A stretch of DNA of 64,000 nucleotides from Gemmatimonadaceae bacterium (GTDB lineage Bacteria > Gemmatimonadota > Gemmatimonadetes > Gemmatimonadales > Gemmatimonadaceae). Shown here one piece after another: positions 67-45,046 of the stretch. The translations under genes were made by a program, and so were the position numbers. The first letter of the stretch is position 1; each line of letters starts with the position of its first letter. The notes below the pieces were generated by a model, which saw nothing but the letters and a program-made list of their open reading frames with translations, was not told the origin of the DNA and searched no databases. The DNA is taken from positions 667,527 to 731,526 of the forward strand of contig JBHYGA010000005.1 of assembly GCA_051859245.1 (NCBI GenBank), written 5' to 3'.

Positions 67-2052
67 ATGTCCGATTTGCGCACCGCTCCCGCTGACCTGA
101 TTGTTCTCACACTCCCCGACGGCAACACGCGCGAGGTGCCCGCCGGCACGCTCGCGCGAGACGTGGTGGGGTCAATTGGAGCGCGTTTGCTCAGCGCCTC
201 GGTGGCCGTGGCCGTGGATGGCGAAGTGGTCGACCTGATGACGCCGCTGCGCAAGAGCGGCGCCTTTGTGGTGATCACTGATAAGGATCCGCGGGCGCTG
301 GAGGTACTGCGCCACTCAGGCGCCCACATTCTGGCCACCGCCGTTCGCCGACTGCGTCCCGACGCGGCGATTGGCTTTGGACCGGCCATCGACGACGGCT
401 TTTACTACGACTTTGACGTCGAGAAGCCCTTCACGCCCGACGATCTGGCGGCGTTTGAGGCCGAAATGCGGAAGGTCGTGGCCGAGAAATACCCGTTTGT
501 GCGCGAGGAAGTGTCGCTTGAGGAGGCGCGCGCGCGGTTTGCCGGCGACCCGCTCAAGATGGAGCGCCTGGCCGACTTTGAAGGCAGCGACGAAGTGATT
601 TCCGTGTACACCGACGGTCCGTTCGTGGATCTCTGTCGTGGACCGCACGTGCCCGATACGTCGTACCTGAAGCACTTCAAGTTGTTGTCCATTGCCGGCG
701 CGTATTGGCGCGGTGATGTGAAGCGACAGATGCTGCAGCGCATCTATGCAACGGCGTTCTGGAAGAAAGACGAGCTCGACACACATTTGCACCAGCTCGA
801 AGAAGCGAAGAAGCGCGACCACCGCGTACTCGGCAAGTCGCTCGATCTTTTCTTCTTCAGCCCGGTGTCACCGGGTGCGGCGTTCTGGACCGAACGCGGC
901 ACAGTCATTGTGAATGAGCTGCAGGCGTATCTGCGCGACTTGCAGCGCGACGGGTATCAGGAAATCCGCACGCCGCTGCTGTACAACAAGTCGCTCTGGG
1001 AAACGTCGGGACACTGGGGCAAGTATCGCGAGAACATGTTCCTCGTGCTGGATAATGAGACGGGCGAGCACGATATGTCGCTCAAACCGATGAACTGTCC
1101 GTCGCATTACGTGATGTATGCGTCGAAGAAACATTCGTACCGCGAACTGCCGCTGCGCTTCAATACGTACGATGTGCTGCATCGCAATGAAGTAACTGGC
1201 GCGTTGTCGGGCCTAACGCGCGTGCGTCAGTTCCAGCAAGACGACTGTCACATTTTCCTGATGGAATCGCAGATCGCCGATGAAGTGCGGCAACTTGTGC
1301 AGTTCATTTTGTCGTACTATCGCACGTTTGGACTTACGGCCACGCTCAAGTTCGCGACGCGTCCGGCCACGCGCATTGGTAGCGACGCAATGTGGGATCA
1401 GGCCGAAGCGGCGCTGCGTGGCGCGCTCGAAGCAACTGGTCTGCCGTACGAACTCAAAGAAGGCGACGGCGCGTTCTACGGGCCGAAAATCGACTTTGAC
1501 GTGCACGATTCCATTGGTCGCGCGTGGCAGCTGGGCACCATTCAGCTCGACTACGCCGCACCGGAACGGTTTGACCTCTCGTACGTGGGCGAGGATAACA
1601 GTGCACACCGTCCGGTGATTATTCACCGCGCGGTATCTGGTTCGTTCGAACGCTTCACGGCCATCCTCATTGAACACTTTGCCGGCGCGTTCCCGGTGTG
1701 GCTCGCACCTGAGCAGATCCGCGTGATTCCGATTGCGGATGACTATCGCGAAACGTGTGAAGCACTGGTGGCGCGCTTCCGTGCCAAGGGATTGAGAGCG
1801 ACGGTTGATGCGCGAAACGAAACGCTGAACTACCGCGTACGCGATGGCGAGATGCAGAAAGTGCCGTACATGGCAGTGGTCGGGAAGCGCGAAGCCGAAG
1901 AGGCCACAGTTGCGCTCCGGGTTCGTCACACGGGCAAGAAGCAGGAGATTCTCTCGGTGGATGCATTCGAAGAACGTGTGCTGCATGAAGTGCGCACCCG
2001 CGCGCTCACGCCGATGCCGGTCGCCGCTTCAACCGACGAGGCGAGCGCGTGA
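67..2052 (+). CDS. thrS: Threonyl-tRNA synthetase
   Basis: N-terminal TGS region, editing motifs HSGAHILA and DLCRGPH, KRDHR, Zn-binding KPMNCPSH, GLTRVRQFQQDD, GAFYGPKID, IHRA. ATG at 67 preferred over GTG at 40. Confidence 0.98.
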   Translation: MSDLRTAPADLIVLTLPDGNTREVPAGTLARDVVGSIGARLLSASVAVAVDGEVVDLMTPLRKSGAFVVITDKDPRALEVLRHSGAHILATAVRRLRPDAAIGFGPAIDDGFYYDFDVEKPFTPDDLAAFEAEMRKVVAEKYPFVREEVSLEEARARFAGDPLKMERLADFEGSDEVISVYTDGPFVDLCRGPHVPDTSYLKHFKLLSIAGAYWRGDVKRQMLQRIYATAFWKKDELDTHLHQLEEAKKRDHRVLGKSLDLFFFSPVSPGAAFWTERGTVIVNELQAYLRDLQRDGYQEIRTPLLYNKSLWETSGHWGKYRENMFLVLDNETGEHDMSLKPMNCPSHYVMYASKKHSYRELPLRFNTYDVLHRNEVTGALSGLTRVRQFQQDDCHIFLMESQIADEVRQLVQFILSYYRTFGLTATLKFATRPATRIGSDAMWDQAEAALRGALEATGLPYELKEGDGAFYGPKIDFDVHDSIGRAWQLGTIQLDYAAPERFDLSYVGEDNSAHRPVIIHRAVSGSFERFTAILIEHFAGAFPVWLAPEQIRVIPIADDYRETCEALVARFRAKGLRATVDARNETLNYRVRDGEMQKVPYMAVVGKREAEEATVALRVRHTGKKQEILSVDAFEERVLHEVRTRALTPMPVAASTDEASA

Positions 2053-3299
2053 CGCCGGACGGATTGCTCGATCTCTTTGTGCTCTCGCCCGTTGGTATCG
2101 TGGCGATGAACGACGAGGGCGAAGTCGAGGTCGCCAATCCGTCGGCCAAACGGCTGTTGCATCCGTTCCTGCGCAGTGGCGACTTGTCGCCGTTCTTTGA
2201 TGTGTTAGCGCCGTGGGTGGGTGACCTCGGCAGTCGGGCGCGCGCGTTTGAAGAGCCGCGTGGTGTCGTGCAGGAAGGTCTCACATTGCTTGTGCCGAGT
2301 GCTCGCGACGAGATGCAGTCGCTGCTCTTGTCGCTGGTGAAACGTGGTCCGGGTCAGTTCATCGCACTCGTGACCGATTCGTCACGGGTAGCGGAACTCG
2401 ATGCCGAAGTGCGCGTCCTGTCGGCTCGCCTTCGTGCGGTGGATCAGGGAGTACGCGACTACGCACTCTATCTCGTGGACGGCGATGGTATCGTGCAGTC
2501 GTGGAGCGAGTCGTCAGAGCGTGTGCATCAGTGTGCCGCCAGCGACATCGTGGGTCAGTCCATGGCGGTATTGGCGCCGGCTGATGCCGGTGGCGAGTCG
2601 CACGTACGCGATCTGCTGAACGCCGCTGAGCAGAACGGATGGAGTGAAGAAGAGGGCATGCGTCTTCGACGCGATGGCACGCCCTTCTGGGCCACCACCG
2701 TGGTGGCAAGTTTGCACGTGAACGATGGCGCGAAGCAGTTTCAGGTGATCACGCGCGATTTGTCTGAGCGTCGTCGATTGGAAGATCTGGTGCGTGAGGG
2801 CGTGGGTACGTCGACAGACGATCTCACGGGTGTGGCCACGCGTCGCGGTTTTTACGATGTGGCGTCAACGGAAATCGCGCGTGCGCGTCGTTACGGACAG
2901 CCGCTCACGATTCTGCTGGTTGATCCGGACAAGTTCCGCGACTTGAACGAAGCGCACGGCACCGAGTTTGGTGACGAATGTTTGCGCGCGATCGCGTGGG
3001 TGTGTCGTCAGGAGTCACGCACCACCGACGTGATTGGTCGTGTGGGCGGCGAAGAGTTTGCGGTGCTGCTGCCGAGCACGGAACTGCCGGGTGGCCTGGT
3101 GTTGGCCGAGCGTATTCGTGAGCGCATGCAGCGCCATGTGTTCCCCGGTGCGCACAGTGGTGTGCGCTGCACGCTGAGTGTCGGTGTGGCCGAGTTGGCG
3201 GAGGAGGCCAGCACGGTGGATGGACTGCTGGCCATGGCGGATACGGCCGTGGCACGCGCCAAACAGGCGGGGCGGAACCTCGTTGTTGGGTTGGACTAG
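2049..3299 (+). CDS. PAS-domain diguanylate cyclase
   Basis: PAS/PAC (RLRRDGTPFW...ITRDLSERR), GGEEF active site preceded by RTTD I-site; GTGA overlap with thrS stop. Confidence 0.92.
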   Translation: MTPDGLLDLFVLSPVGIVAMNDEGEVEVANPSAKRLLHPFLRSGDLSPFFDVLAPWVGDLGSRARAFEEPRGVVQEGLTLLVPSARDEMQSLLLSLVKRGPGQFIALVTDSSRVAELDAEVRVLSARLRAVDQGVRDYALYLVDGDGIVQSWSESSERVHQCAASDIVGQSMAVLAPADAGGESHVRDLLNAAEQNGWSEEEGMRLRRDGTPFWATTVVASLHVNDGAKQFQVITRDLSERRRLEDLVREGVGTSTDDLTGVATRRGFYDVASTEIARARRYGQPLTILLVDPDKFRDLNEAHGTEFGDECLRAIAWVCRQESRTTDVIGRVGGEEFAVLLPSTELPGGLVLAERIRERMQRHVFPGAHSGVRCTLSVGVAELAEEASTVDGLLAMADTAVARAKQAGRNLVVGLD

Positions 3300-36589: not shown

Positions 36590-36747
36590 AACTGCATTAA
36601 CACAGAGACGCAGAGTCGCAGAGACTGCATGTCGCGACGAGCAGCGTCGCAGCGGGTACACATATTCAATTAATTTGAATCTGTGTGCCGCGATGCTCGA
36701 ACAACATGTTGTCTCTGCGCCTCCGCGTCTCCGTGTTCAACGCAGTT
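36590..36747. repeat. Palindromic repeat element, copy 2
   Basis: Imperfect inverted arms of about 43 nt (36590-36632 / 36704-36747) of the same family; the interior also pairs (ACACA.ATTCAA...TTGAAT.TGTGT). Confidence 0.88.
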
Positions 36748-38624
36748 TACGATGCGAGCCCCGCGCGCAGGCTGTCGAGATCTGCACCAAACCCGAGCAG
36801 CATCCGTGCGATCGGCTGCTCATCTTCACGTATTAGCGCGAGCAGCACGCGCTCCGGCGAAATTTCCTCTCGGCGCTTCTCCCGAGTGAGCTCGCGGGCA
36901 TCAGCGAGCGCCTTCTCAACCTCCGCATCCAACGCGATCGCGGGCGCATCAACACGATCATCGTGCGGCAACAACCGCTCGCGATACTCCTGCGCAAAGC
37001 GTCGCACATCCATTCGACTGGTGTTCTTCAGCGTGGGTTGCGCGCCGCTGCGTGATCGTATGAGGCCGAAGAAAAGATGCTCGACCGTAACGAGTGAATC
37101 ACCGCGTCGGTGTGCATCATCGCCGGCGAGCAGCAACGCTTCCTGAACACGCGAAGAAAACTGCGGTTCAGGTGCTGGTTTCGCACGCTCCTCCGCGAGC
37201 ACCGCGTCGGGATCAATACCGAACAACTCGGCGATTCGACGCGATGATCGATATGGATCTCCCAACATTTCGCGTGCCATCTCGCGCGCCGATGTTCTGG
37301 GACGCCAGCCCCGCAGGTCGGGATCTGCACCGCATCGCAGCAGCGCCTCAACGGCGTTTGCCCAACCGTTGCCAACGGCGACAACGAGTAGCGGAACTTC
37401 CCACAGTCGAGCGTTCACGTTGGCGCCGCGCTTGGCGAGGTATTCGATGGTGGATGCGCGGCCGTTCATCGCGGCGACGATGAGCAGTTCGAAGAGCAGT
37501 TCTTCGTAGCTTGGTTCCGGGATCATTGGCATGGCCATGCCGGGGCTCGCGGCCGGAAAGTTTGGGCGATTTCGGCGTGCCTCCGGGCGCAGCTTTCCGT
37601 TGCTGTCAAACCATCGTGAGAGGCCGACAACATCGCCAAGTCCGGCGGCGATCCAAGCGGCGTCGCGACGGTTGGCGCGCGCCGCGAGCACGTCAACAGC
37701 ATCACCATTCCACCAACGCAATATGGCGTGCTCCAGCACGCTCAGACCGTTCGGCGCCACCCAGTTGGGATTTGCGCCAAGCGCGATAAGATGCGTGACG
37801 CGGTCGGGGCGCATCATGTTTACGCCGAGCAGCTGCGGGTTGAGAAGCGAATGCAGATCACCCCCTCGCTCAACCAGCCATTCGACAAGCGCCGCTTCGT
37901 TCTCTGGCGTTGAGCGGTCACGTAGCGAGAGCACCGCTTCCAGCAGCCGTTGCACTCCGACTCCAAACGCAGTTTCACTGGCCAGCATGCCGGGATTGTT
38001 TTCCACCACCTGCTCGAGCGCAGCCACGTCGCCTTTCCGAATGGCGTCGAAGGCCTCTCGAAATTCATCAACGTACCACGGATCGTTGTGCTGCCACGAC
38101 GCCTGTTCCGCGGACGCTTCCAGCAAACGCGTCCAGTTGCTGAACCCACTATGTCGCGCAATCGCCAGACGCGCCTCGTCTTCGGTGACGGTGCTTTCGA
38201 AGACGTCTTCCAGTTTCAGCCCGTACAGCCGAGGCACGTACGCCGCAAATGCGCGTCCGGTGAACTCACGCTTGGCGGCATGTTCAGCGATCCACTGCTT
38301 GACGCGGCGTTCGAGATGTTGGGCGGGTTCGATACCGCGACGCCAGCCCCCACGCTGTTCGCGTGATGCCAACTGTTGCTCCATCTCGCCGAAATAGCGC
38401 ACCAGACGAGGCCAACTCAAAAACCCGTACTCACGCGCAATAATGCGCTGCGCATCGGCCAGCTTGATACTCTCGGGTTTCGCAGTTGCGATGTCGTCAT
38501 TCAGCGCAGTCGCCCGCGCAATCGCGTCGGCGTTTCCCGCGCGCAGTTGCTTGAGCAGCGCCTTCGCAGCTTTGCGTTCGAACTCCAGGCTCGGGTTCGA
38601 CGGCAGCATGCGGCTTCCGGACAT
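36747..38624 (-). CDS. Ankyrin-repeat-like protein with duplicated N-terminal helical domain and C-terminal Clp-N domain
   Basis: LPSNPSLEFERKAAK...IAREYGFLSW, second IARHSGFSNW; ankyrin-like GANPN, GANVN, GADPD; Clp-N-like FSSRVQEAL...VEHLFFGL; AAAGGAGG SD. Confidence 0.85.
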   Translation of the reverse strand: MSGSRMLPSNPSLEFERKAAKALLKQLRAGNADAIARATALNDDIATAKPESIKLADAQRIIAREYGFLSWPRLVRYFGEMEQQLASREQRGGWRRGIEPAQHLERRVKQWIAEHAAKREFTGRAFAAYVPRLYGLKLEDVFESTVTEDEARLAIARHSGFSNWTRLLEASAEQASWQHNDPWYVDEFREAFDAIRKGDVAALEQVVENNPGMLASETAFGVGVQRLLEAVLSLRDRSTPENEAALVEWLVERGGDLHSLLNPQLLGVNMMRPDRVTHLIALGANPNWVAPNGLSVLEHAILRWWNGDAVDVLAARANRRDAAWIAAGLGDVVGLSRWFDSNGKLRPEARRNRPNFPAASPGMAMPMIPEPSYEELLFELLIVAAMNGRASTIEYLAKRGANVNARLWEVPLLVVAVGNGWANAVEALLRCGADPDLRGWRPRTSAREMAREMLGDPYRSSRRIAELFGIDPDAVLAEERAKPAPEPQFSSRVQEALLLAGDDAHRRGDSLVTVEHLFFGLIRSRSGAQPTLKNTSRMDVRRFAQEYRERLLPHDDRVDAPAIALDAEVEKALADARELTREKRREEISPERVLLALIREDEQPIARMLLGFGADLDSLRAGLAS

Positions 38625-38740
38625 ACGACCTCCTTTCGTGGTGGCCCCGTCCGCGTGTGGGCTCGAAAGAAGGAAGTGAGTTGTACCTGCGGGTGCATCA
38701 CCATCGGATGGGACGATCCCTTCCTGCGGACCAGCGGCGC
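38625..38740 (-). promoter_or_regulatory. Structured 5' leader with alternative SD-sequestering folds (riboswitch/attenuator candidate)
   Basis: CCUUCUUUCG (38673-38664) pairs with CGAAAGGAGG (38638-38629); competing GUCCGC/GCGGAC and AGGAAG/CUUCCU stems. Confidence 0.55.
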
Positions 38741-39010
38741 TCCGACTGCGCCGAGGAGATTCTGATGCCGGGGCAGCACCGCGTCAAGCGTCTGGATGTC
38801 GAGGCGTTCGGCTCCGAAGCGTCGTTATCTGCGCCGCCATCTGCGCCGCCATCTGCGCCCGTGACTGCCGTCACCCAAAGAGAAGGCCGTGGGCGATCAG
38901 GGACAGAACAAGATCCTCCCCAAGGCGAATGTTCGGCGGCTCCGCGAAATGTCAGGTTCCATCTTCTCGCCGCCGCACGCGGATCTGGAACGCCCCACAC
39001 GGAGACTCCC

Positions 39011-39541
39011 ATGTCGCTCGACACACTGCACGACCTGCTGGTGCACGAACTCAAGGACCTCTACAGCGCCGAGAAGCAGCTGGTCGCAGCGCTGCCGAAG
39101 ATGATCAAAGCCACGACCACACCAGAGCTGAAGGACGCCTTCACGACGCACCTCGAGCAGACCAAGGAGCATGTGGCGCGCATTGAGCAGGCGATGGAGC
39201 TCATTGGTGGCAGCCCGCGTGGTATGAAGTGCAAAGGCATGGAAGGGCTGCTCGAAGAAGGCAGCTCGCTACTCGAAGAAGATGCCGATCCGGACGTGCT
39301 CGATGTTGCATTGATCGGTGCCGCACAGCGTGTGGAACACTACGAAATCGCGGCCTATGGCTCAGCCTGCGCACTCGCCGCCAGCATGCAACACAATGAC
39401 GTGCTGTCGCTGCTCGAACTCACGCTGTCGGAAGAACTGGAAACAGACTCGCTCCTCGCGGCAATGGCCGAAGAACTCATGAGTTCAATCGCCGAGCGCG
39501 ATGGCCAGGAGGCCATGGGTGTTGCCGACGGCGAAGACTAG
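39011..39541 (+). CDS. Ferritin-like DUF892 (YciE/YciF) protein
   Basis: ELKDLYSAEKQ, HLEQTKEHVARIE, CKGMEGL, QRVEHYEIAAYG; GGAGA SD before ATG 39011. Confidence 0.92.
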   Translation: MSLDTLHDLLVHELKDLYSAEKQLVAALPKMIKATTTPELKDAFTTHLEQTKEHVARIEQAMELIGGSPRGMKCKGMEGLLEEGSSLLEEDADPDVLDVALIGAAQRVEHYEIAAYGSACALAASMQHNDVLSLLELTLSEELETDSLLAAMAEELMSSIAERDGQEAMGVADGED

Positions 39542-41568
39542 CGGAGCAGGGCCGTCGCGCTGAGGGCCGAGCTGGGCACTCGGTACACCAGCGCCTGGCC
39601 TTGCACTGTTGTCTCCAATCCGCGTTCGCTTTTCGCGCGCGACACGATTTCGTAGCGGTGAACGTGCTCGGCGTTTGAGCATTTCACCTGTACGTTCGTT
39701 CGCGCGCCAAGCGAAAGCTCCACCGCCACGACGCACTGCGCGGGCAGCGTGGCACCGCTCCAATCAATGGAAATCGTGAGTTCGCCGGTGGCGTGCACGG
39801 TGAGGGTGATACACAAGTCATCGCCCGTGAAGTCGAGCGCGATATGATCGGCGGCAATCTTGCGCACCGCCACTGCAAACGCTGAGGTCGTCCACGAGCG
39901 CAGCGGAACGTAGTCTGCGTTCTCGTACTGCTGATCCGTGACACGCGCATCGATCGCGCGCACCTGAAATAGCGACCGCACATCGAGATCGGCCGGTGGC
40001 AGCGACTCCAGCGTGTGCGAGTGCTCCAGATCGTGAATAGACGGCGCACCCTGAGCGGTCGTACTTGATGCAGCGGTGGCTTCGGTCTCGGCCGCAGCGT
40101 GTGCTACCGCCTCCGTCTCCACCGTCTCCGTCTCCACCGCGTGCGGTGTCACCGCACTCGCCGCCATCGCATGCGCTGCTACCGCATCAACGTGGTACGA
40201 CTCCACGCGACGCGTCAGCACATCCGCGGCGTTCTCGGCATGGTCCAGCCGCAGCCATGTTTCGATCGCGGCGCCACGATGCGGCGCAATCACCACCGAC
40301 ACATGTTCGCCGTGTACCCACAACTCGTCGTGGCCATCGGCGTCGATGTCGCGCCGTTCAACCGCCAGCGGCTGACCGTAGCGCAGCAACGCTTCCGCAC
40401 GCGCGAGATGATGCCAGTTCGACTCGCGCAGCCACGGCAAGTACAATCCACCAAACACTCCGTGCCAGAGCGGATCGTTGCTCTGCGCCATGCCAATCGC
40501 GCGGCGCGCTTCCACCGGATTGCCACGCGCTCGGCACAGTGCTGACACGGCCAGCATATGCTTGTGCAACCGATTCGCTTCCGGATACTTGACGAGAAAG
40601 TGTTTCCAATGCGAACCGCGCACAAAAATTCCGTCGGGTCCATCAACACGTTCGTCGCCGAGTGCCACGCGCATGTCGTTACGAAGCGCAGCGAGCCGCT
40701 GCGTCGCGGCGGCGGGCAACGACCATTCTTCCATTTCGCGATACGAGCCGGTGGGCAGATACGTGAGTCCACCGCGCCGCGACGAGCGCAGCGCTTCCAC
40801 GCCCGTTACCAGGCGAACTTCACCGGCTTGCTGCAATTCGCTGAGCGTGTCGAGAAACGTCTCGAGCCAGCCGGATCCAAAGACCCATTCGTGTGTGCCA
40901 GGCCAGCCACCAAACTTTTCGGCGTCGTCGGCAAAGATGGCGAGCGATTCACCGGCAGTTCTGCGCGCGCGCAGTGCCGTCACAATGTCGCTCACGGGCT
41001 TGAACGGAATCAGATACCGCAGGCGTTCATCGATCGGCAGCAGATCCAGATGTCGGCCATCGTGCTCCGTGCGAAACACGGCGCCAAGCGTTGATGGCTC
41101 ATGTCCCGCGGCGAGCAGCGGGCGGTCGTCAATGAGCGCGTACTGTACGCCCGCATCCGCCAGATCGCGTGCGAGGTCGGGCTCCCACACGCGTTCCGTC
41201 AACCACAATCCCGGACCTGCTGTGTCAAAGCGCGAGCGTAGCGCCTCGGTGAGCCAGGCGATCTGTTCGAGTCGATCCGCGCGCGGCAAGGTGGCGAGGA
41301 TTGGCTCGTAGTAACCCGCCAGCAAAAACTCCAACCGGCCCTCAAGGGCTAATCGACCGAGATCGTCGAGCAGGCGGTGATCGTGCTGCGCGCACCAGTC
41401 GAGCAGCGGACCGGAGATGTGAATGATCGCCGGCCACTGCGGCCGCTTTGCAAGCGCGGCAATCAGCGGCCGATACACCTCACGCACATGCTGTTCGAAC
41501 ACTTCGCCAAAGTTGCCAACGGGCTGGTGCAGGTGCAGCGCAAAATACAGATCAAGCGGCGCGGTCAT
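39538..41568 (-). CDS. GH57 4-alpha-glucanotransferase/alpha-amylase-like protein
   Basis: HLHQPVGN, HISG, YEPIL, WLTERVWEP, DDAEKFGGWPGT, SYREMEEW, KYPEAN, QSND..WHGVFGGLYLP. Confidence 0.92.
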   Translation of the reverse strand: MTAPLDLYFALHLHQPVGNFGEVFEQHVREVYRPLIAALAKRPQWPAIIHISGPLLDWCAQHDHRLLDDLGRLALEGRLEFLLAGYYEPILATLPRADRLEQIAWLTEALRSRFDTAGPGLWLTERVWEPDLARDLADAGVQYALIDDRPLLAAGHEPSTLGAVFRTEHDGRHLDLLPIDERLRYLIPFKPVSDIVTALRARRTAGESLAIFADDAEKFGGWPGTHEWVFGSGWLETFLDTLSELQQAGEVRLVTGVEALRSSRRGGLTYLPTGSYREMEEWSLPAAATQRLAALRNDMRVALGDERVDGPDGIFVRGSHWKHFLVKYPEANRLHKHMLAVSALCRARGNPVEARRAIGMAQSNDPLWHGVFGGLYLPWLRESNWHHLARAEALLRYGQPLAVERRDIDADGHDELWVHGEHVSVVIAPHRGAAIETWLRLDHAENAADVLTRRVESYHVDAVAAHAMAASAVTPHAVETETVETEAVAHAAAETEATAASSTTAQGAPSIHDLEHSHTLESLPPADLDVRSLFQVRAIDARVTDQQYENADYVPLRSWTTSAFAVAVRKIAADHIALDFTGDDLCITLTVHATGELTISIDWSGATLPAQCVVAVELSLGARTNVQVKCSNAEHVHRYEIVSRAKSERGLETTVQGQALVYRVPSSALSATALLR

Positions 41569-43529
41569 CGCGGTTCAAACGAGTGAAAGGGCGCATCGGG
41601 AAACGGCGTGAGTGCGCGCGTTTTGAGCAGCGCACGTGCGGCGATTTCCGGAAAGTCGCGCACGTCATACAACGAGGGTGTATCGAGACGTCCACGCACC
41701 ATACCACGCAATGAGACACGCGGTGCACCGTGTTCGGCGCTCATGAGCACCACGGCCTGATACGATGCGGTCCGGCCCGTGCGCGCGTGCTGTAGTGTGA
41801 CGGTAAACGGTGCGGTGGTATCAACAGCGGTGTCCACTGTTGCATCGTAGGCGCCCAGACGAGGCGGCGTACCGAGCGTTTGCGCGAGCTGTCCATCGGC
41901 GAGCAGTGCCGCGACGGCCGCGGCGGTGCGCGCTTCCACGCTGCGATGGGGCAAGGCACCACGCACAAACACATCGGCGGCGGTGCCAGCACGCGGATCG
42001 TTGCTGCGTGCGTCAGCGAGTCGCTCCACAAATCCGGCTTCAAGTCGAGCGGCACGACCGCTCAGGTCGAGCACACGCGCCGCATACCGCAGCACCTGCC
42101 GCGCTTCAATGCGTGCCACATCATCAAAGAACCACGCGCATGATGTGAACAGTCGCAGCACGGCGCGTTGCATTTCGAGCAGTTCGCGGGCGCGCTGGAC
42201 ATCGGCCGCATCGGTGCGCCGCTCCGGGCGCATTGCGCCTACCACGTAGTCATTGAGTGCGTCACCTTGCAGCGCGACAACTCGACCGTATCCATCACGC
42301 ACACTCCACGGATCATCGCTGAACAGCGGCGTGGCGTCTGTGGAATAGATCGTGTGCGCTTCATTGGCGAGCCAGGTAAGCGCGCGGCGCAGCGGGCCAC
42401 GCCAGGCCTGACTGGTGCCGGCACCTGGATCGAGCTTGCATCCACAATCACTGCGCCAGCGCTCGACGCCGTGCGCGCAGCTCCACGCACTCGGCGCCAC
42501 CAGTTCGGCATCGGCCGCTGGCGGCAAGATGGTGAGCAGCGACGAGAAGTTGTGGACCTGCGCATCCGGTCGCGCCGCAATGCGTGCCACGGCACGCGCA
42601 AGCGTCACATCACCACCGCGGTGATGATGGCCGAACGTTTCACCATCGGTTGCCAGGATCGTATTCAAGACCGGCGACGACGGATCAGACGGCGCCAGTC
42701 GATTCGCTAACGCCACGGGATCGCGCAGCAATCCACCAAATGCAACCTCGCCGGAGAGTCCGCCGTCGTAGGTGAACAGGGCGAGCTCGTGGCCATTCGC
42801 CGAACGCCAGCGCAACGGACGCCCCGTTGGATCGGGATTCCGGACCTGATACGGCGCGAGCACAACAAACCGAATGCCCGCCTCTGCGACCACCTCGAGC
42901 GTCTCTTCGTCGACCGCCGTTTCGGGCAACCAGAAGCCCTGCGGCGCGCGACCAAAACGACGCGCAAAATCGTCAATGCCCCAGCGCACTTCGGTGACTT
43001 TGTCGCGGCGCGACGCGAGTGGCAGAATGATGTGGTGATACGGCGCGGCAATCGCGTTGCCGTGTCCACCAAGGCGCGTTGCACTGGCGCGGTCACCGTC
43101 GATCATGGCCTGATACGTTTCCGGCGCGTGCACTTCCAGCCACTCACAGAGTGTGGCACCCACATCAAACGCACACCACGCATACAGATTCACAATGCGC
43201 GCCAATCCGCCCGGCACATCGGGTGCAGGCGCGGGCCCGAGTTCGCGGGTCAACACGGCAAGCGCTCGCGAACGTGCGTCGCCCGCCAGCGCGGCCTCGG
43301 CCTCAGGCGGAAGCTCTTCGTCAACGCGCGCGGGTGCAACGCGAACTTCTGTGGCAGCGAGGCGTGCGTAACACTCACGATCAATGCGTGCGTTCCAGTC
43401 GTGATCAGGCGCCGCCGACGGCTCCACGTCAACCAGTTCAAGCCACGGATCTTCCCGGGGCGGCTGGTAGCAGTGCGCGTGCACGATCACGGAGCGCACC
43501 GTGGTCGCTGGTGCGTCCGGCTCAGACAC
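41565..43529 (-). CDS. GH57-family DUF3536-domain protein
   Basis: HAHCYQPPREDPW, HDWNARI..ECY, HIILPLA, WLPETAVD, TDGETFGHH, WSCAHGVERW, FTSCAWFFDD; GTG 43529 behind GGAG. Confidence 0.9.
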   Translation of the reverse strand: MSEPDAPATTVRSVIVHAHCYQPPREDPWLELVDVEPSAAPDHDWNARIDRECYARLAATEVRVAPARVDEELPPEAEAALAGDARSRALAVLTRELGPAPAPDVPGGLARIVNLYAWCAFDVGATLCEWLEVHAPETYQAMIDGDRASATRLGGHGNAIAAPYHHIILPLASRRDKVTEVRWGIDDFARRFGRAPQGFWLPETAVDEETLEVVAEAGIRFVVLAPYQVRNPDPTGRPLRWRSANGHELALFTYDGGLSGEVAFGGLLRDPVALANRLAPSDPSSPVLNTILATDGETFGHHHRGGDVTLARAVARIAARPDAQVHNFSSLLTILPPAADAELVAPSAWSCAHGVERWRSDCGCKLDPGAGTSQAWRGPLRRALTWLANEAHTIYSTDATPLFSDDPWSVRDGYGRVVALQGDALNDYVVGAMRPERRTDAADVQRARELLEMQRAVLRLFTSCAWFFDDVARIEARQVLRYAARVLDLSGRAARLEAGFVERLADARSNDPRAGTAADVFVRGALPHRSVEARTAAAVAALLADGQLAQTLGTPPRLGAYDATVDTAVDTTAPFTVTLQHARTGRTASYQAVVLMSAEHGAPRVSLRGMVRGRLDTPSLYDVRDFPEIAARALLKTRALTPFPDAPFHSFEPR

Positions 43530-43531
43530 GA

Positions 43532-45046
43532 TCAGCTCCGACTCTGCACGACGTGGCGCGCTTTGTCGTACAGCTGCGCATACCGTTCGGCCGACCGTTC
43601 CCAGCCAAAGTCTCGACCCATGGCGACATGCATACGCTTGGCCCAACCCGCGCTGTCACCGAAACGGGCCAATGCACGCGAAATCGCGTGATCAAACGCC
43701 GCCGACGTAAACGGATCGAAGAGAAACCCGGTGACATCGTCTTCGACGGTGTCTGCAATGCCACCAACGCGACGGCCAATCGGCAACGCGCCGTACCGCT
43801 GCGCGCGCATTTGTGTGAGACCACACGGTTCATACTGCGACGGCATGAGAAACATGTCTGCACCGGCCATGAGGCGGTGCTCCAACCGGTCGGTAAAGTC
43901 GAGCTGCACGCCAACGTGATTGGGTCGCGCGCTCGCCAGTTGCGTAAGGGCGCGCTCGTACCTCGGCTCACCCTGGCCAAGAAACACAAACTGCGCATCC
44001 ATATTCCAGACGAGATGCGAGTTGAGAATCAGGTCCAGCCCTTTTTGCGTGACCATGCGACCGGTCATGCCAAAGAGCGGCGTGCGCTTGCGTTGCGGCA
44101 GACCGAATGAACGTTGCAGAGCCGCCTTGCAGCGCGCTTTCGCACTCGTGTCTTCGCGGGTGTAGTTGGCGGTGATCTGGTCGTCGCGAGCCGGATCCCA
44201 CTCGGTTTGATCAATGCCGTTTGTGATGCCCGCGAATCGGTCGCCCAACCACTGGAACGTGGTGTGCAAACCGAATCCACCATCAGGCGTGCGCAGCTCA
44301 CGCGCGTGTCCCGGGCTCACGGTCACAGCCACATCGGCGAACGCGAGTCCCGTTTTGAGATAGTTCACGCGGCCGTACCACTCGGCCATACGCCAGTTGT
44401 ACACCTCAGGCGGAATGCCACAGTCCGCCATGATGCTTTCGGGAAAGTGCCCCTGATAACCGGCGTTGTGAATCGACAACACGGTTGGCGTGGTCGCAAA
44501 CCGTTCGCGCAGGCCGCTGTACGCGCGCATGTACATGAGCGCGAGCGACGTGTGCCAATCGTGCGCATGTACGAGCACTGGTCCGGCAATCAACCGGTTG
44601 ATCCCATCGAGTACGGCGCGCGAAAACACGGCGTAGCGCCGCGCGTTGTCCGGATAATCCTGTCCGTTCTCGCCGTACAACCCACTGCGATTGAAATACG
44701 CCGGTGCATCAACAAACACCACGCGTGGTCCGGGACCGCTGTTGACTTCGCGAAAGAAACGCACTTCGACCGACCGAAAGCCCAGTTCAACGGCAATCGG
44801 TCGGCCAAGTGGCGCGAGGTCCGGCGCGTGATCACGCACGCTGCGATAGAGCGGCACAAACACCACCACCGCCGAACCAGCGCGTGATTGAAACGTGGCG
44901 AGGCCACGCACGGCCTCGGCAAGCCCACCGGTGCGCGCGTACGGCGCGTACTCCGACGTGAGATGAACGATCGTTGGTGAACCGTCCGCAGCAGGCGGAA
45001 CGGCGGGAAACGAAACGGACGGTGTGGGCTGCGCGAGGCGCGTCAT
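43532..45046 (-). CDS. glgA: Glycogen synthase (GT5)
   Basis: RTGGL, HAHDWH, IHN..YQG, TVSP, NGID, QKG, PSQYEPCGLTQM, GGIADTV. Confidence 0.94.
   Translation of the reverse strand: MTRLAQPTPSVSFPAVPPAADGSPTIVHLTSEYAPYARTGGLAEAVRGLATFQSRAGSAVVVFVPLYRSVRDHAPDLAPLGRPIAVELGFRSVEVRFFREVNSGPGPRVVFVDAPAYFNRSGLYGENGQDYPDNARRYAVFSRAVLDGINRLIAGPVLVHAHDWHTSLALMYMRAYSGLRERFATTPTVLSIHNAGYQGHFPESIMADCGIPPEVYNWRMAEWYGRVNYLKTGLAFADVAVTVSPGHARELRTPDGGFGLHTTFQWLGDRFAGITNGIDQTEWDPARDDQITANYTREDTSAKARCKAALQRSFGLPQRKRTPLFGMTGRMVTQKGLDLILNSHLVWNMDAQFVFLGQGEPRYERALTQLASARPNHVGVQLDFTDRLEHRLMAGADMFLMPSQYEPCGLTQMRAQRYGALPIGRRVGGIADTVEDDVTGFLFDPFTSAAFDHAISRALARFGDSAGWAKRMHVAMGRDFGWERSAERYAQLYDKARHVVQSRS

Follow-up and report, generated by a model that had tools for sequence, protein, structure and literature searches.

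A candidate family of structured leader RNAs upstream of ankyrin-repeat genes in about nine bacterial phyla

Introduction

Does the leader of an ankyrin-repeat gene in a Gemmatimonadaceae bacterium act as a regulatory RNA, and if so, how would it control its gene? The gene lies in a 64,000-nucleotide stretch of contig JBHYGA010000005.1 (here called the window) and encodes a protein of 625 amino acids (aa). A divergent intergenic region of 386 bp between this gene and a DUF892 gene holds the leader element. A reading of the DNA letters by themselves (the original prediction) described the leader as riboswitch-like, with two mutually exclusive folds that block or free the Shine-Dalgarno (SD) sequence. 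Here we compare the leader with its counterparts at homologous loci. It has one conserved fold, in which the SD is hidden, and we put at about 60% the probability that it represents an uncatalogued family of structured cis-regulatory RNAs controlling translation of the ankyrin-repeat gene. The gene and its leader lie at the following positions.

36747..38624, minus strand: putatively regulated gene, 625 aa, with a basic five-helix N-terminal domain, ankyrin repeats and two C-terminal Clp_N repeats
38624-38622, minus strand: AUG start codon of the 625-aa gene
About 38752-38625, minus strand: leader element, ~128 nt, 5' untranslated region (UTR) of the 625-aa gene, its extent taken from the predicted transcript start

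Conservation and distribution of the leader

Homologous loci (77) were collected in one scan of species-representative genomes with a protein query. The leaders of 28 Gemmatimonadota loci were aligned with MAFFT (alignments A2 and A3), and a covariance model (CM), R1, was built from A3. R1 matches 72 of the 77 loci, 68 at full length and 4 cut by the end of a contig. Three loci (L028, L041, L048) are not evaluable, and the leader is present at 72 of the 74 evaluable homologous genes. These genes start with the N-terminal domain signature LPxxPxLE..K.AK, an association that had been anticipated from the window, and full-length R1 matches end at the start of the homologous gene or at most about 10 nt from it. 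Compensatory changes upstream of the homologues support a conserved, structured 5' leader that hides the SD. The leader is conserved at the nucleotide level, with long invariant blocks, upstream of orthologues that are only 35-50% identical in protein.

R1 scores range from 116 to 145 bits in Gemmatimonadota and from 21 to 74 bits in other phyla. A broader cross-phylum CM, R2, gives 49-101 bits outside Gemmatimonadota and separates true matches (at least 46.8 bits) from noise (at most 15 bits). The 64-kb window contains a single copy of the leader (117 bits; the next best match reaches 13.3 bits with R2 and filters off), and R1 and R2 scans of the locus flanks found no further copies. The carriers belong to about nine phyla, named from the titles of the sequence records: Gemmatimonadota, Actinomycetota, Acidobacteriota, Planctomycetota, Chloroflexota, Pseudomonadota, Myxococcota, Melainabacteria and Methylomirabilia. 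Low-scoring carriers include Alpha-, Gamma- and 'delta' proteobacteria and Polyangiaceae.

Some metagenome-assembled genomes have two loci (L019 and L036, L032 and L045, L008 and L028), and the Gemmatimonadota paralogues fall into at least three groups that differ in their N-terminal extensions. The paralogues L019 and L036 both have the leader; L045, the second copy beside L032, has none. In L011 the start-codon position (2998-3000) reads AAG rather than ATG or GTG, which could be an assembly error or a damaged start; its leader is intact at 139 bits. The leader and protein N-terminus of L054 ('Mycobacterium sp. KBS0706') are nearly identical to those of the alphaproteobacterium Inquilinus (L056, L057), and the organism name of the L054 record may be wrong.

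Architecture of the leader

Folding of the window leader as a single sequence provides no argument for structure, because its fold is no more stable than those of shuffled sequences (minimum free energy (MFE) -42.9 kcal/mol, shuffles averaging -46.1 kcal/mol, z +0.81; 157 of 200 shuffles at least as good). The significance of the structure rests on conservation. Covariation in hairpins P1, P2 and P4 was counted on a CM-fitted alignment of 69 sequences, and the picture for P4 and P2 is the same in MAFFT alignment A3 within Gemmatimonadota. The pseudoknot helix PKa was tested in A6, a MAFFT leader alignment fitted to no structure. PKa, the kissing helix PKb and a 2-bp clamp were left unpaired in R1, so their covariation cannot come from model fitting. 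As controls, partner strands were slid by 1-3 columns and 500 shuffles were made; none of the 500 matched the observed covariation in the tests of PKa, of the P1, P2 and P4 helices, or of PKb.

The SD-blocking hairpin P4 consists of the following parts.

38664..38673 (read 38673-38664), minus strand: 5' side of the P4 outer helix, anti-SD strand CCUUCUUUCG
38629..38638 (read 38638-38629), minus strand: 3' side of the P4 outer helix, SD strand CGAAAGGAGG
38644..38662, minus strand: P4 inner helix, GCCC (38662-38659) with GGGC (38647-38644), loop ACAC-GCGGAC-G
38643-38639, minus strand: 5-nt bulge CACCA in the P4 3' strand (4-5 nt across sequences)

The comparative evidence shows the SD GAAAGGAGG paired to an internal anti-SD within the P4 outer helix. 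This is the SD-blocked fold of the original prediction. All segments and coordinates of that prediction hold on the minus strand. The 10-bp anti-SD:SD helix and its inner GCCC/GGGC belong to the RNAfold MFE structure and show compensatory changes. Pairing in the outer helix amounts to 95.2%, and 8 of its 10 pairs have changed on both sides; the inner helix reaches 98.3%, with such changes at 4 of its 5 pairs. Slid partners for this hairpin are 47-64% paired. At two positions, U/C changes in the anti-SD keep the pairing to the invariant SD as G-U or G-C. U-G occurs at two P4 pairs in 40 and 20 sequences, respectively, so the structure fits the sense strand only. The window P4 is a perfect 10-bp helix with a single G-U, plus 4 G-C pairs, and across the 69 sequences the free energy of P4 varies from -10.1 to -26.5 kcal/mol around a median of -21.1 kcal/mol. 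The SD columns GAAAGGAG(G) have the same base in 57-67 of the 69 sequences, and we take this conserved SD to be the full complement of a CCUCCUUUC 16S tail.

The 5' domain, the kissing partners and the linker to P4 are arranged as follows.

38736..38752, minus strand: P1 hairpin, GGCGC (38752-38748), loop AGUCGGA (38747-38741), GCGCC (38740-38736)
38741..38745, minus strand: PKa 5' strand UCGGA, the 3' part of the P1 loop
38724..38734, minus strand: 2-bp clamp (C38734-G38724, U38733-A38725), closing the 7-nt loop G-GUCCGC
38731-38726, minus strand: PKb 5' partner GUCCGC, in the clamp-closed 7-nt loop
38710..38720, minus strand: P2 hairpin GGGA-UCG-UCCC, 4 bp, with GAA before it and A38709 after it
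38704..38708, minus strand: PKa 3' strand UCCGA, 5 nt directly after P2 and A38709
38674..38703, minus strand: variable linker, 30 nt in the window, with no conserved sequence or structure
38654-38649, minus strand: PKb 3' partner GCGGAC, in the P4 apical loop

P1 is paired in 91.5% of cells of the 69-sequence alignment, with 4 of 5 pairs changed on both sides (pair types GCGC/GCGC, GCGU/ACGC, GCC/GGC, GCUC/GAGC, GCGG/CCGC, GCAG/CUGC, GGUCG/CGACC and GCAU/AUGC). PKa is 92.9% paired in A6, with all five pairs changed on both sides (variants UCGGA:UCCGA, GCAGG:CCUGC, GCAAG:CUUGC, CGAG:CUCG, CCGGG:CCCGG and GAGG:CCUC), against 38-57% for the slid controls. P1 and PKa together form an H-type pseudoknot. 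Two other assignments were tried for this region. A CGGA:UCCG hairpin suggested by RNAalifold was rejected, since other phyla read CAGG, CAAG or CGAG there, covarying with the segment after P2. An initial outer stem of P2 (CGG/CCG) was re-assigned to PKa on the same cross-phylum covariation.

The clamp pairs are C-G in 68 and 67 of the 69 sequences, respectively; L076 departs from this with A-U, the window and L001 with U-A. The clamp is unpaired in none of the 69 sequences and compensated in two lineages, and the loop that it closes has the general form R-GUCCGC. In the window clamp, the A of CGCAGG has the U of GCUG as its partner. P2 is 98.5-100% paired with two covarying pairs: its closing pair is A-U in 49 sequences and C-G in 19, and another pair is G-C in 65 and A-U in 3. 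Conserved unpaired bases are few, namely the invariant A before P2 (A38721; column 64, 69 of 69 sequences), an adjacent A/C and a mostly-A position after P2. The linker is 21-35 nt long across the 69 sequences, and RNAalifold pairs nothing in it. No intrinsic terminator was found in the window leader; the linker of L070 has a single weak terminator-like site, seen in that locus only.

The kissing helix PKb (GUCCGC:GCGGAC) is paired in all 68 rows with letters on both sides (100%), and 3 of its 6 pairs have changed on both sides (AUCCGC:GCGGAU in L061, GUUCGU:ACGAAC in L053); its first pair is G-U in L051, L054, L056 and L057, and slid controls are 23-46% paired. This pairing had been assigned to the SD-free fold and therefore to a state excluding P4. 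The pairing is real, but the exclusion does not hold: GCGGAC lies in the P4 loop and the P4 stem also covaries, which makes PKb a kissing or pseudoknot contact that can coexist with P4. PKb is near-invariant in sequence while the other helices vary freely, and this pattern points to recognition by a protein or to tertiary contacts. Two further candidate features were rejected. A second GUCCG at the start codon, which would compete for the P4 loop, is present in 16 of 28, 2 of 25 and 3 of 15 sequences of three groups and is not conserved. As for CsrA-type GGA sites, L051, for example, lacks GGA in its P1 loop, and L053 lacks it in its P4 loop.

The encoded protein and its N-terminal domain

The 625-aa protein has over 450 relatives, and its Gemmatimonadota family is about 620 aa long (alignment A1). 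Pfam finds ankyrin repeats and two Clp_N repeats in the protein and nothing in the first ~100 residues. Among 18 proteins scanned from low-scoring loci (L051-L077), 17 are ankyrin-repeat proteins of 372-543 aa with the same N-terminal domain and without Clp_N, and the L067 protein has no Pfam hit; in these Pfam scans Clp_N was seen only in Gemmatimonadota-type proteins. The N-terminal domain is predicted to be a five-helix bundle (48 sequences; predicted local distance difference test (pLDDT) score 79). A basic character is common to all 48 sequences (median net charge +4, pI ~10), and R64, G67, S70 and W71 are invariant.

Foldseek found nothing in the PDB for this domain at E <= 0.001 (best E 2.7), and phmmer found no match in the PDB. 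A tblastn search of plasmids with the N-terminal domain of L070 gave no match, the protein atlas returned only unnamed clusters, and PADLOC only ankyrin-type similarity. The domain family comprises 9,597 cluster representatives (50% identity) at E <= 0.001, in which the domain is almost always N-terminal. Of 150 representatives listed, 30 were scanned: 13 have ankyrin repeats, 1 has zf-C4_ClpX and Clp_N, 2 have FliM and 14 have no Pfam hit. In P0160 the N-terminal domain is combined with two ClpX zinc fingers and four Clp_N repeats, and in P0201 and P0237 it precedes FliM domains. The recurrent link to Clp substrate-recognition modules suggests an adaptor-like role for the family. Residues ~100-190 of the protein (window 38325-38210) show an apparent repeat of the motif '..DA.L..AR..GF.SW..L' in A1, and the N-terminal part may be a tandem duplication.

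Proposed mechanism and alternative explanations

Conservation and covariation show a 5' domain comprising the H-type pseudoknot (P1 and PKa), P2 and the clamped 7-nt loop carrying GUCCGC, and a 3' domain formed by the very stable P4, with the SD paired to the anti-SD and GCGGAC in the apical loop. The 6-bp kissing helix between the two loops docks the SD-blocking hairpin onto the 5' domain. In the mechanism that we propose, the conserved state would be translation-OFF, with the 5' pseudoknot and the kissing contact locking P4 at its distal end. The strength of this lock would be set by an effector at the 5' domain or the kissing interface, and under a loose lock the unusually long conserved SD may allow the 16S rRNA tail to compete with its imperfect internal mimic. 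The great stability of P4 implies a default OFF state and argues against a thermometer. Since the leader is spread over about nine phyla and has no conserved neighbouring gene, the effector should be universal or self-encoded. A small molecule, the basic N-terminal domain, and other options (processing by RNase, the ribosome itself, or the absence of any switch) each receive roughly a third of our weight.

Several points weigh against the interpretation as a translational regulator. Switching has to be inferred, because no conserved SD-free alternative structure was found in the 69 leaders examined. The second helix of the proposed SD-free fold, AGGAAG (38725-38720, minus strand) with CUUCCU (38676-38671, minus strand), lacks conservation: pairing holds in 64.9% of cells, its three inner pairs fail in 10 to 23 of 28 sequences, and the helix is specific to the window, where the clamp takes its place. 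The shifted register GGAAGGG:UYYUUUC, tried as an anti-anti-SD, is 96.4% paired in Gemmatimonadota yet compositional, and pairing of GG-RAA-GGG to the anti-SD has a median z of -0.06 relative to shuffles of the purine-rich segment, with 9 of 69 sequences below -1.64. For nested structures of the window leader, the MFE is -50.1 kcal/mol and the best SD-free fold -41.6 kcal/mol; PKb forced as a nested helix gives -44.8 kcal/mol, and the SD-free fold of the original prediction with P1 added gives -24.3 kcal/mol. An SD hairpin of -21 kcal/mol should almost abolish translation. The gene product has protein-interaction domains only, so the gene suggests no ligand, and conserved unpaired nucleotides are fewer than we would expect for a typical small-molecule aptamer. 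L045 and L058 lack the motif, even with filters off, although their gene starts are intact and ~200 bp of spacer lies in front of them. The transcript start is a prediction. Every locus was picked through protein homology, so the association of leader and gene is measured from the protein side. The covariation counts are of sequences, many of them related, and overstate independent events; the independent lineages are two each for PKb and the clamp, and many for PKa, P1 and the P4 inner helix.

Two explanations of what the leader responds to are about equally likely, and both are tentative. In one, the leader is under autogenous control: the encoded protein would bind its own leader, at the kissing helix or the 5' pseudoknot, via its basic five-helix domain, and so set its own translation; leader and domain would then be one portable module, in line with the original prediction. 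In the other, it is a small-molecule or ion riboswitch of a new class, with a pocket made of the 5' pseudoknot and the kissing interface, where a ligand would stabilise the kissing helix and SD sequestration. The leader accompanies its gene in 72 of 74 evaluable loci, in about nine phyla and with several paralogues per genome, and what the proteins share is the N-terminal domain and the ankyrin repeats, Clp_N being confined to the Gemmatimonadota type. This co-occurrence, the self-sufficiency across phyla and the basic domain (48 of 48 sequences, with invariant R64, G67, S70 and W71) favour autoregulation, although the co-occurrence carries the protein-side limit given above. The absence of a conserved neighbouring gene is expected of a self-encoded effector, and for a riboswitch it means that the signal must be universal. 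A near-invariant kissing helix suggests sequence-specific recognition, and the scarcity of conserved unpaired bases fits a scaffold recognised by a protein and speaks against a riboswitch. RNA binding by the domain is, however, a hypothesis, given the lack of a PDB relative (Foldseek best E 2.7; no phmmer match), and negative autoregulation needs a translatable default, whereas the free RNA already hides the SD strongly. The aptamer-like double pseudoknot favours a riboswitch, as do the near-invariant core segments across about nine phyla, the extent of the leader over essentially the whole predicted 5' UTR, and the kissing-loop-to-ribosome-binding-site (RBS) layout shared with cobalamin riboswitches. 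Against it, the one gene family known downstream has no metabolic or transport domain, and there is no ligand candidate. A covarying structured 5' UTR element is present; mutually exclusive or conserved alternative expression-platform pairings were not found, and a kissing-stabilised platform needs none. A bolder version of autogenous control, which we consider less likely than not, holds that leader and N-terminal domain form a horizontally mobile RNA-protein autoregulatory module. The domain would then represent a novel fold for RNA binding, its target a kissing-loop pseudoknot in the mRNA that encodes it, and the module would have spread over about nine phyla in front of ankyrin proteins resembling Clp adaptors.

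Two other explanations are much less probable. An RNA thermometer, in which the SD hairpin melts on a temperature upshift, is very unlikely: the SD is sequestered in a hairpin, and the Gemmatimonadota gene carries Clp_N, a domain of stress-related unfoldases, but thermometers have a marginally stable SD hairpin, and P4 (median -21.1 kcal/mol in 69 sequences; in the window a perfect 10-bp helix with one G-U) is far stronger than ROSE and fourU hairpins. The elaborate 5' domain and kissing contact would also be unnecessary. Less likely still, with hardly any weight left to it, is the idea that the conserved stretch has no function as RNA and is a DNA operator or promoter, an N-terminal coding extension, or a product of chance. 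The divergent intergenic region does contain a tandem repeat besides a promoter-like site, shuffled sequences fold just as well as the window leader, and translation of the upstream frame reads through a conserved pseudo-peptide, '...KGG-x-M', in many loci. This pseudo-peptide reflects nucleotide conservation that includes the SD, KGG being the SD AAAGGAGG read in frame, and in L003, L021, L024 and L034 this frame is interrupted by stops 60-78 nt before the start codon, with no alternative start candidate. Compensatory changes in six helices, strand-specific G-U pairs and CM scores of 117-145 bits against noise of at most 15 argue for an RNA, and the leader as a translational regulator remains the reading that we prefer.

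Relationship to known RNA systems

A scan of window positions 38300-39300 against Rfam 15 (4227 models, E <= 10) gave three chance-level hits (E 3.5-8.3), none of them overlapping 38625-38755, and a scan of nine distant loci (E <= 1) gave no hit at any leader. This agrees with the earlier remark that the leader resembles no known riboswitch class. A sub-threshold match in L070 that resembles the Guanidine-I riboswitch (1109-1239, plus strand) scores 40.4 bits where the gathering score is 63 (E 7e-4); it is found ~1.6 kb upstream of this Acrocarpospora locus's leader and is unrelated to the leader. Literature searches covering sources other than subscription journals returned no description of the leader. 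The main text of Narunsky 2024 (PMC11109978) has no mention of ankyrin, Gemmatimon- or kissing, 8 supplementary files of Weinberg 2010 (PMC2864571) have no mention of ankyrin, and the full text of Weinberg 2017 (PMC5737381) has 0 occurrences of ankyrin, although its supplement might list such a motif.

We rate the leader as a new class within the structured SD-sequestering leaders and riboswitch candidates, absent from Rfam 15. To our knowledge, few structured leader RNAs recur in many phyla, and catalogues already contain most of those that do. Six helices covary in this one, two of them tertiary pairings. It would be either an orphan riboswitch class, its signal presumably universal, or a first hint of RNA binding in a very large and uncharacterised family of N-terminal domains. 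In both cases it gives a regulatory handle on widespread bacterial ankyrin proteins of unknown function, some of them with Clp substrate-recognition domains.

Among the closest known systems are cobalamin riboswitches (E. coli btuB and the env8 class-II riboswitch), in which a ligand-dependent kissing loop closes the RBS hairpin. In both systems a loop of the sensing domain pairs with the apical loop of a downstream RBS hairpin, coupling the sensor to SD access. The leader differs in having no Rfam cobalamin match (no hit to RF00174, RF01482 or RF01689), no visible B12-box-like core and an unrelated gene context, the downstream genes being of the ankyrin type. Its SD hairpin is also much stronger, and ligand dependence of the kissing contact is here hypothetical.

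PreQ1-II, SAM-II and SAM-V riboswitches have a compact H-type pseudoknot in the 5' UTR and translational control via the SD, and preQ1-II has, like the leader, a small hairpin embedded in a long loop, with A-rich loop segments present. In those riboswitches, however, the SD is itself a strand of the pseudoknot, whereas in the leader it lies in a separate hairpin joined only by the kissing helix, and Rfam shows no sequence or model similarity. The rpsO/S15 and alpha-operon/S4 leaders are pseudoknotted, contain the SD, and are tied to and carried with one gene. S15 and S4 are known RNA binders with rRNA-mimicking leaders, whereas the genes here encode ankyrin repeats, Clp_N and an uncharacterised N-terminal domain. 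ROSE and fourU thermometers also pair the SD in a 3' hairpin of the leader; the present hairpin lacks weak or mismatched pairs and is joined by a 5' pseudoknot and a kissing contact. Guanidine-II and -IV riboswitches depend on a loop-loop (kissing) interaction of two hairpins, but with other loops, sizes and gene contexts, and without an Rfam match at the leader.

Promoter and gene context

The remaining features of the divergent region are a promoter-like site and the neighbouring gene.

38759..38787, minus strand: promoter-like site, -35 TTGACG (38787-38782), 17-nt spacer, -10-like CAGAAT (38764-38759)
39011-39541, plus strand: DUF892 gene (Pfam)

The promoter-like site has 9 of 12 consensus matches, against 0.1 such sites expected by chance, and TTGAC occurs in the same aligned column in 26 of the 28 Gemmatimonadota leaders (MAFFT alignment, by eye). 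From its fixed distance upstream, transcripts are predicted to begin right at the first hairpin, near 38752 in the window, which would be the 5' edge of P1. The promoter arrangement of the L068 leader is similar to that of the window. Comparison of the loci revealed no conserved neighbouring gene beyond groups of at most 4 close relatives, and the DUF892 gene was accordingly rejected as a conserved partner.

Beyond the DUF892 gene, minus-strand open reading frames of 676 and 693 aa (window 39538-43646) presumably encode enzymes resembling the glycoside-hydrolase-family-57 type, judging from a reading of their sequences. A perfect 12-bp tandem repeat, ATCTGCGCCGCC (2.8 copies, window 38827-38859), lies ~40 bp upstream of the leader's -35 box and could be a transcription-factor site for either of the divergent genes.

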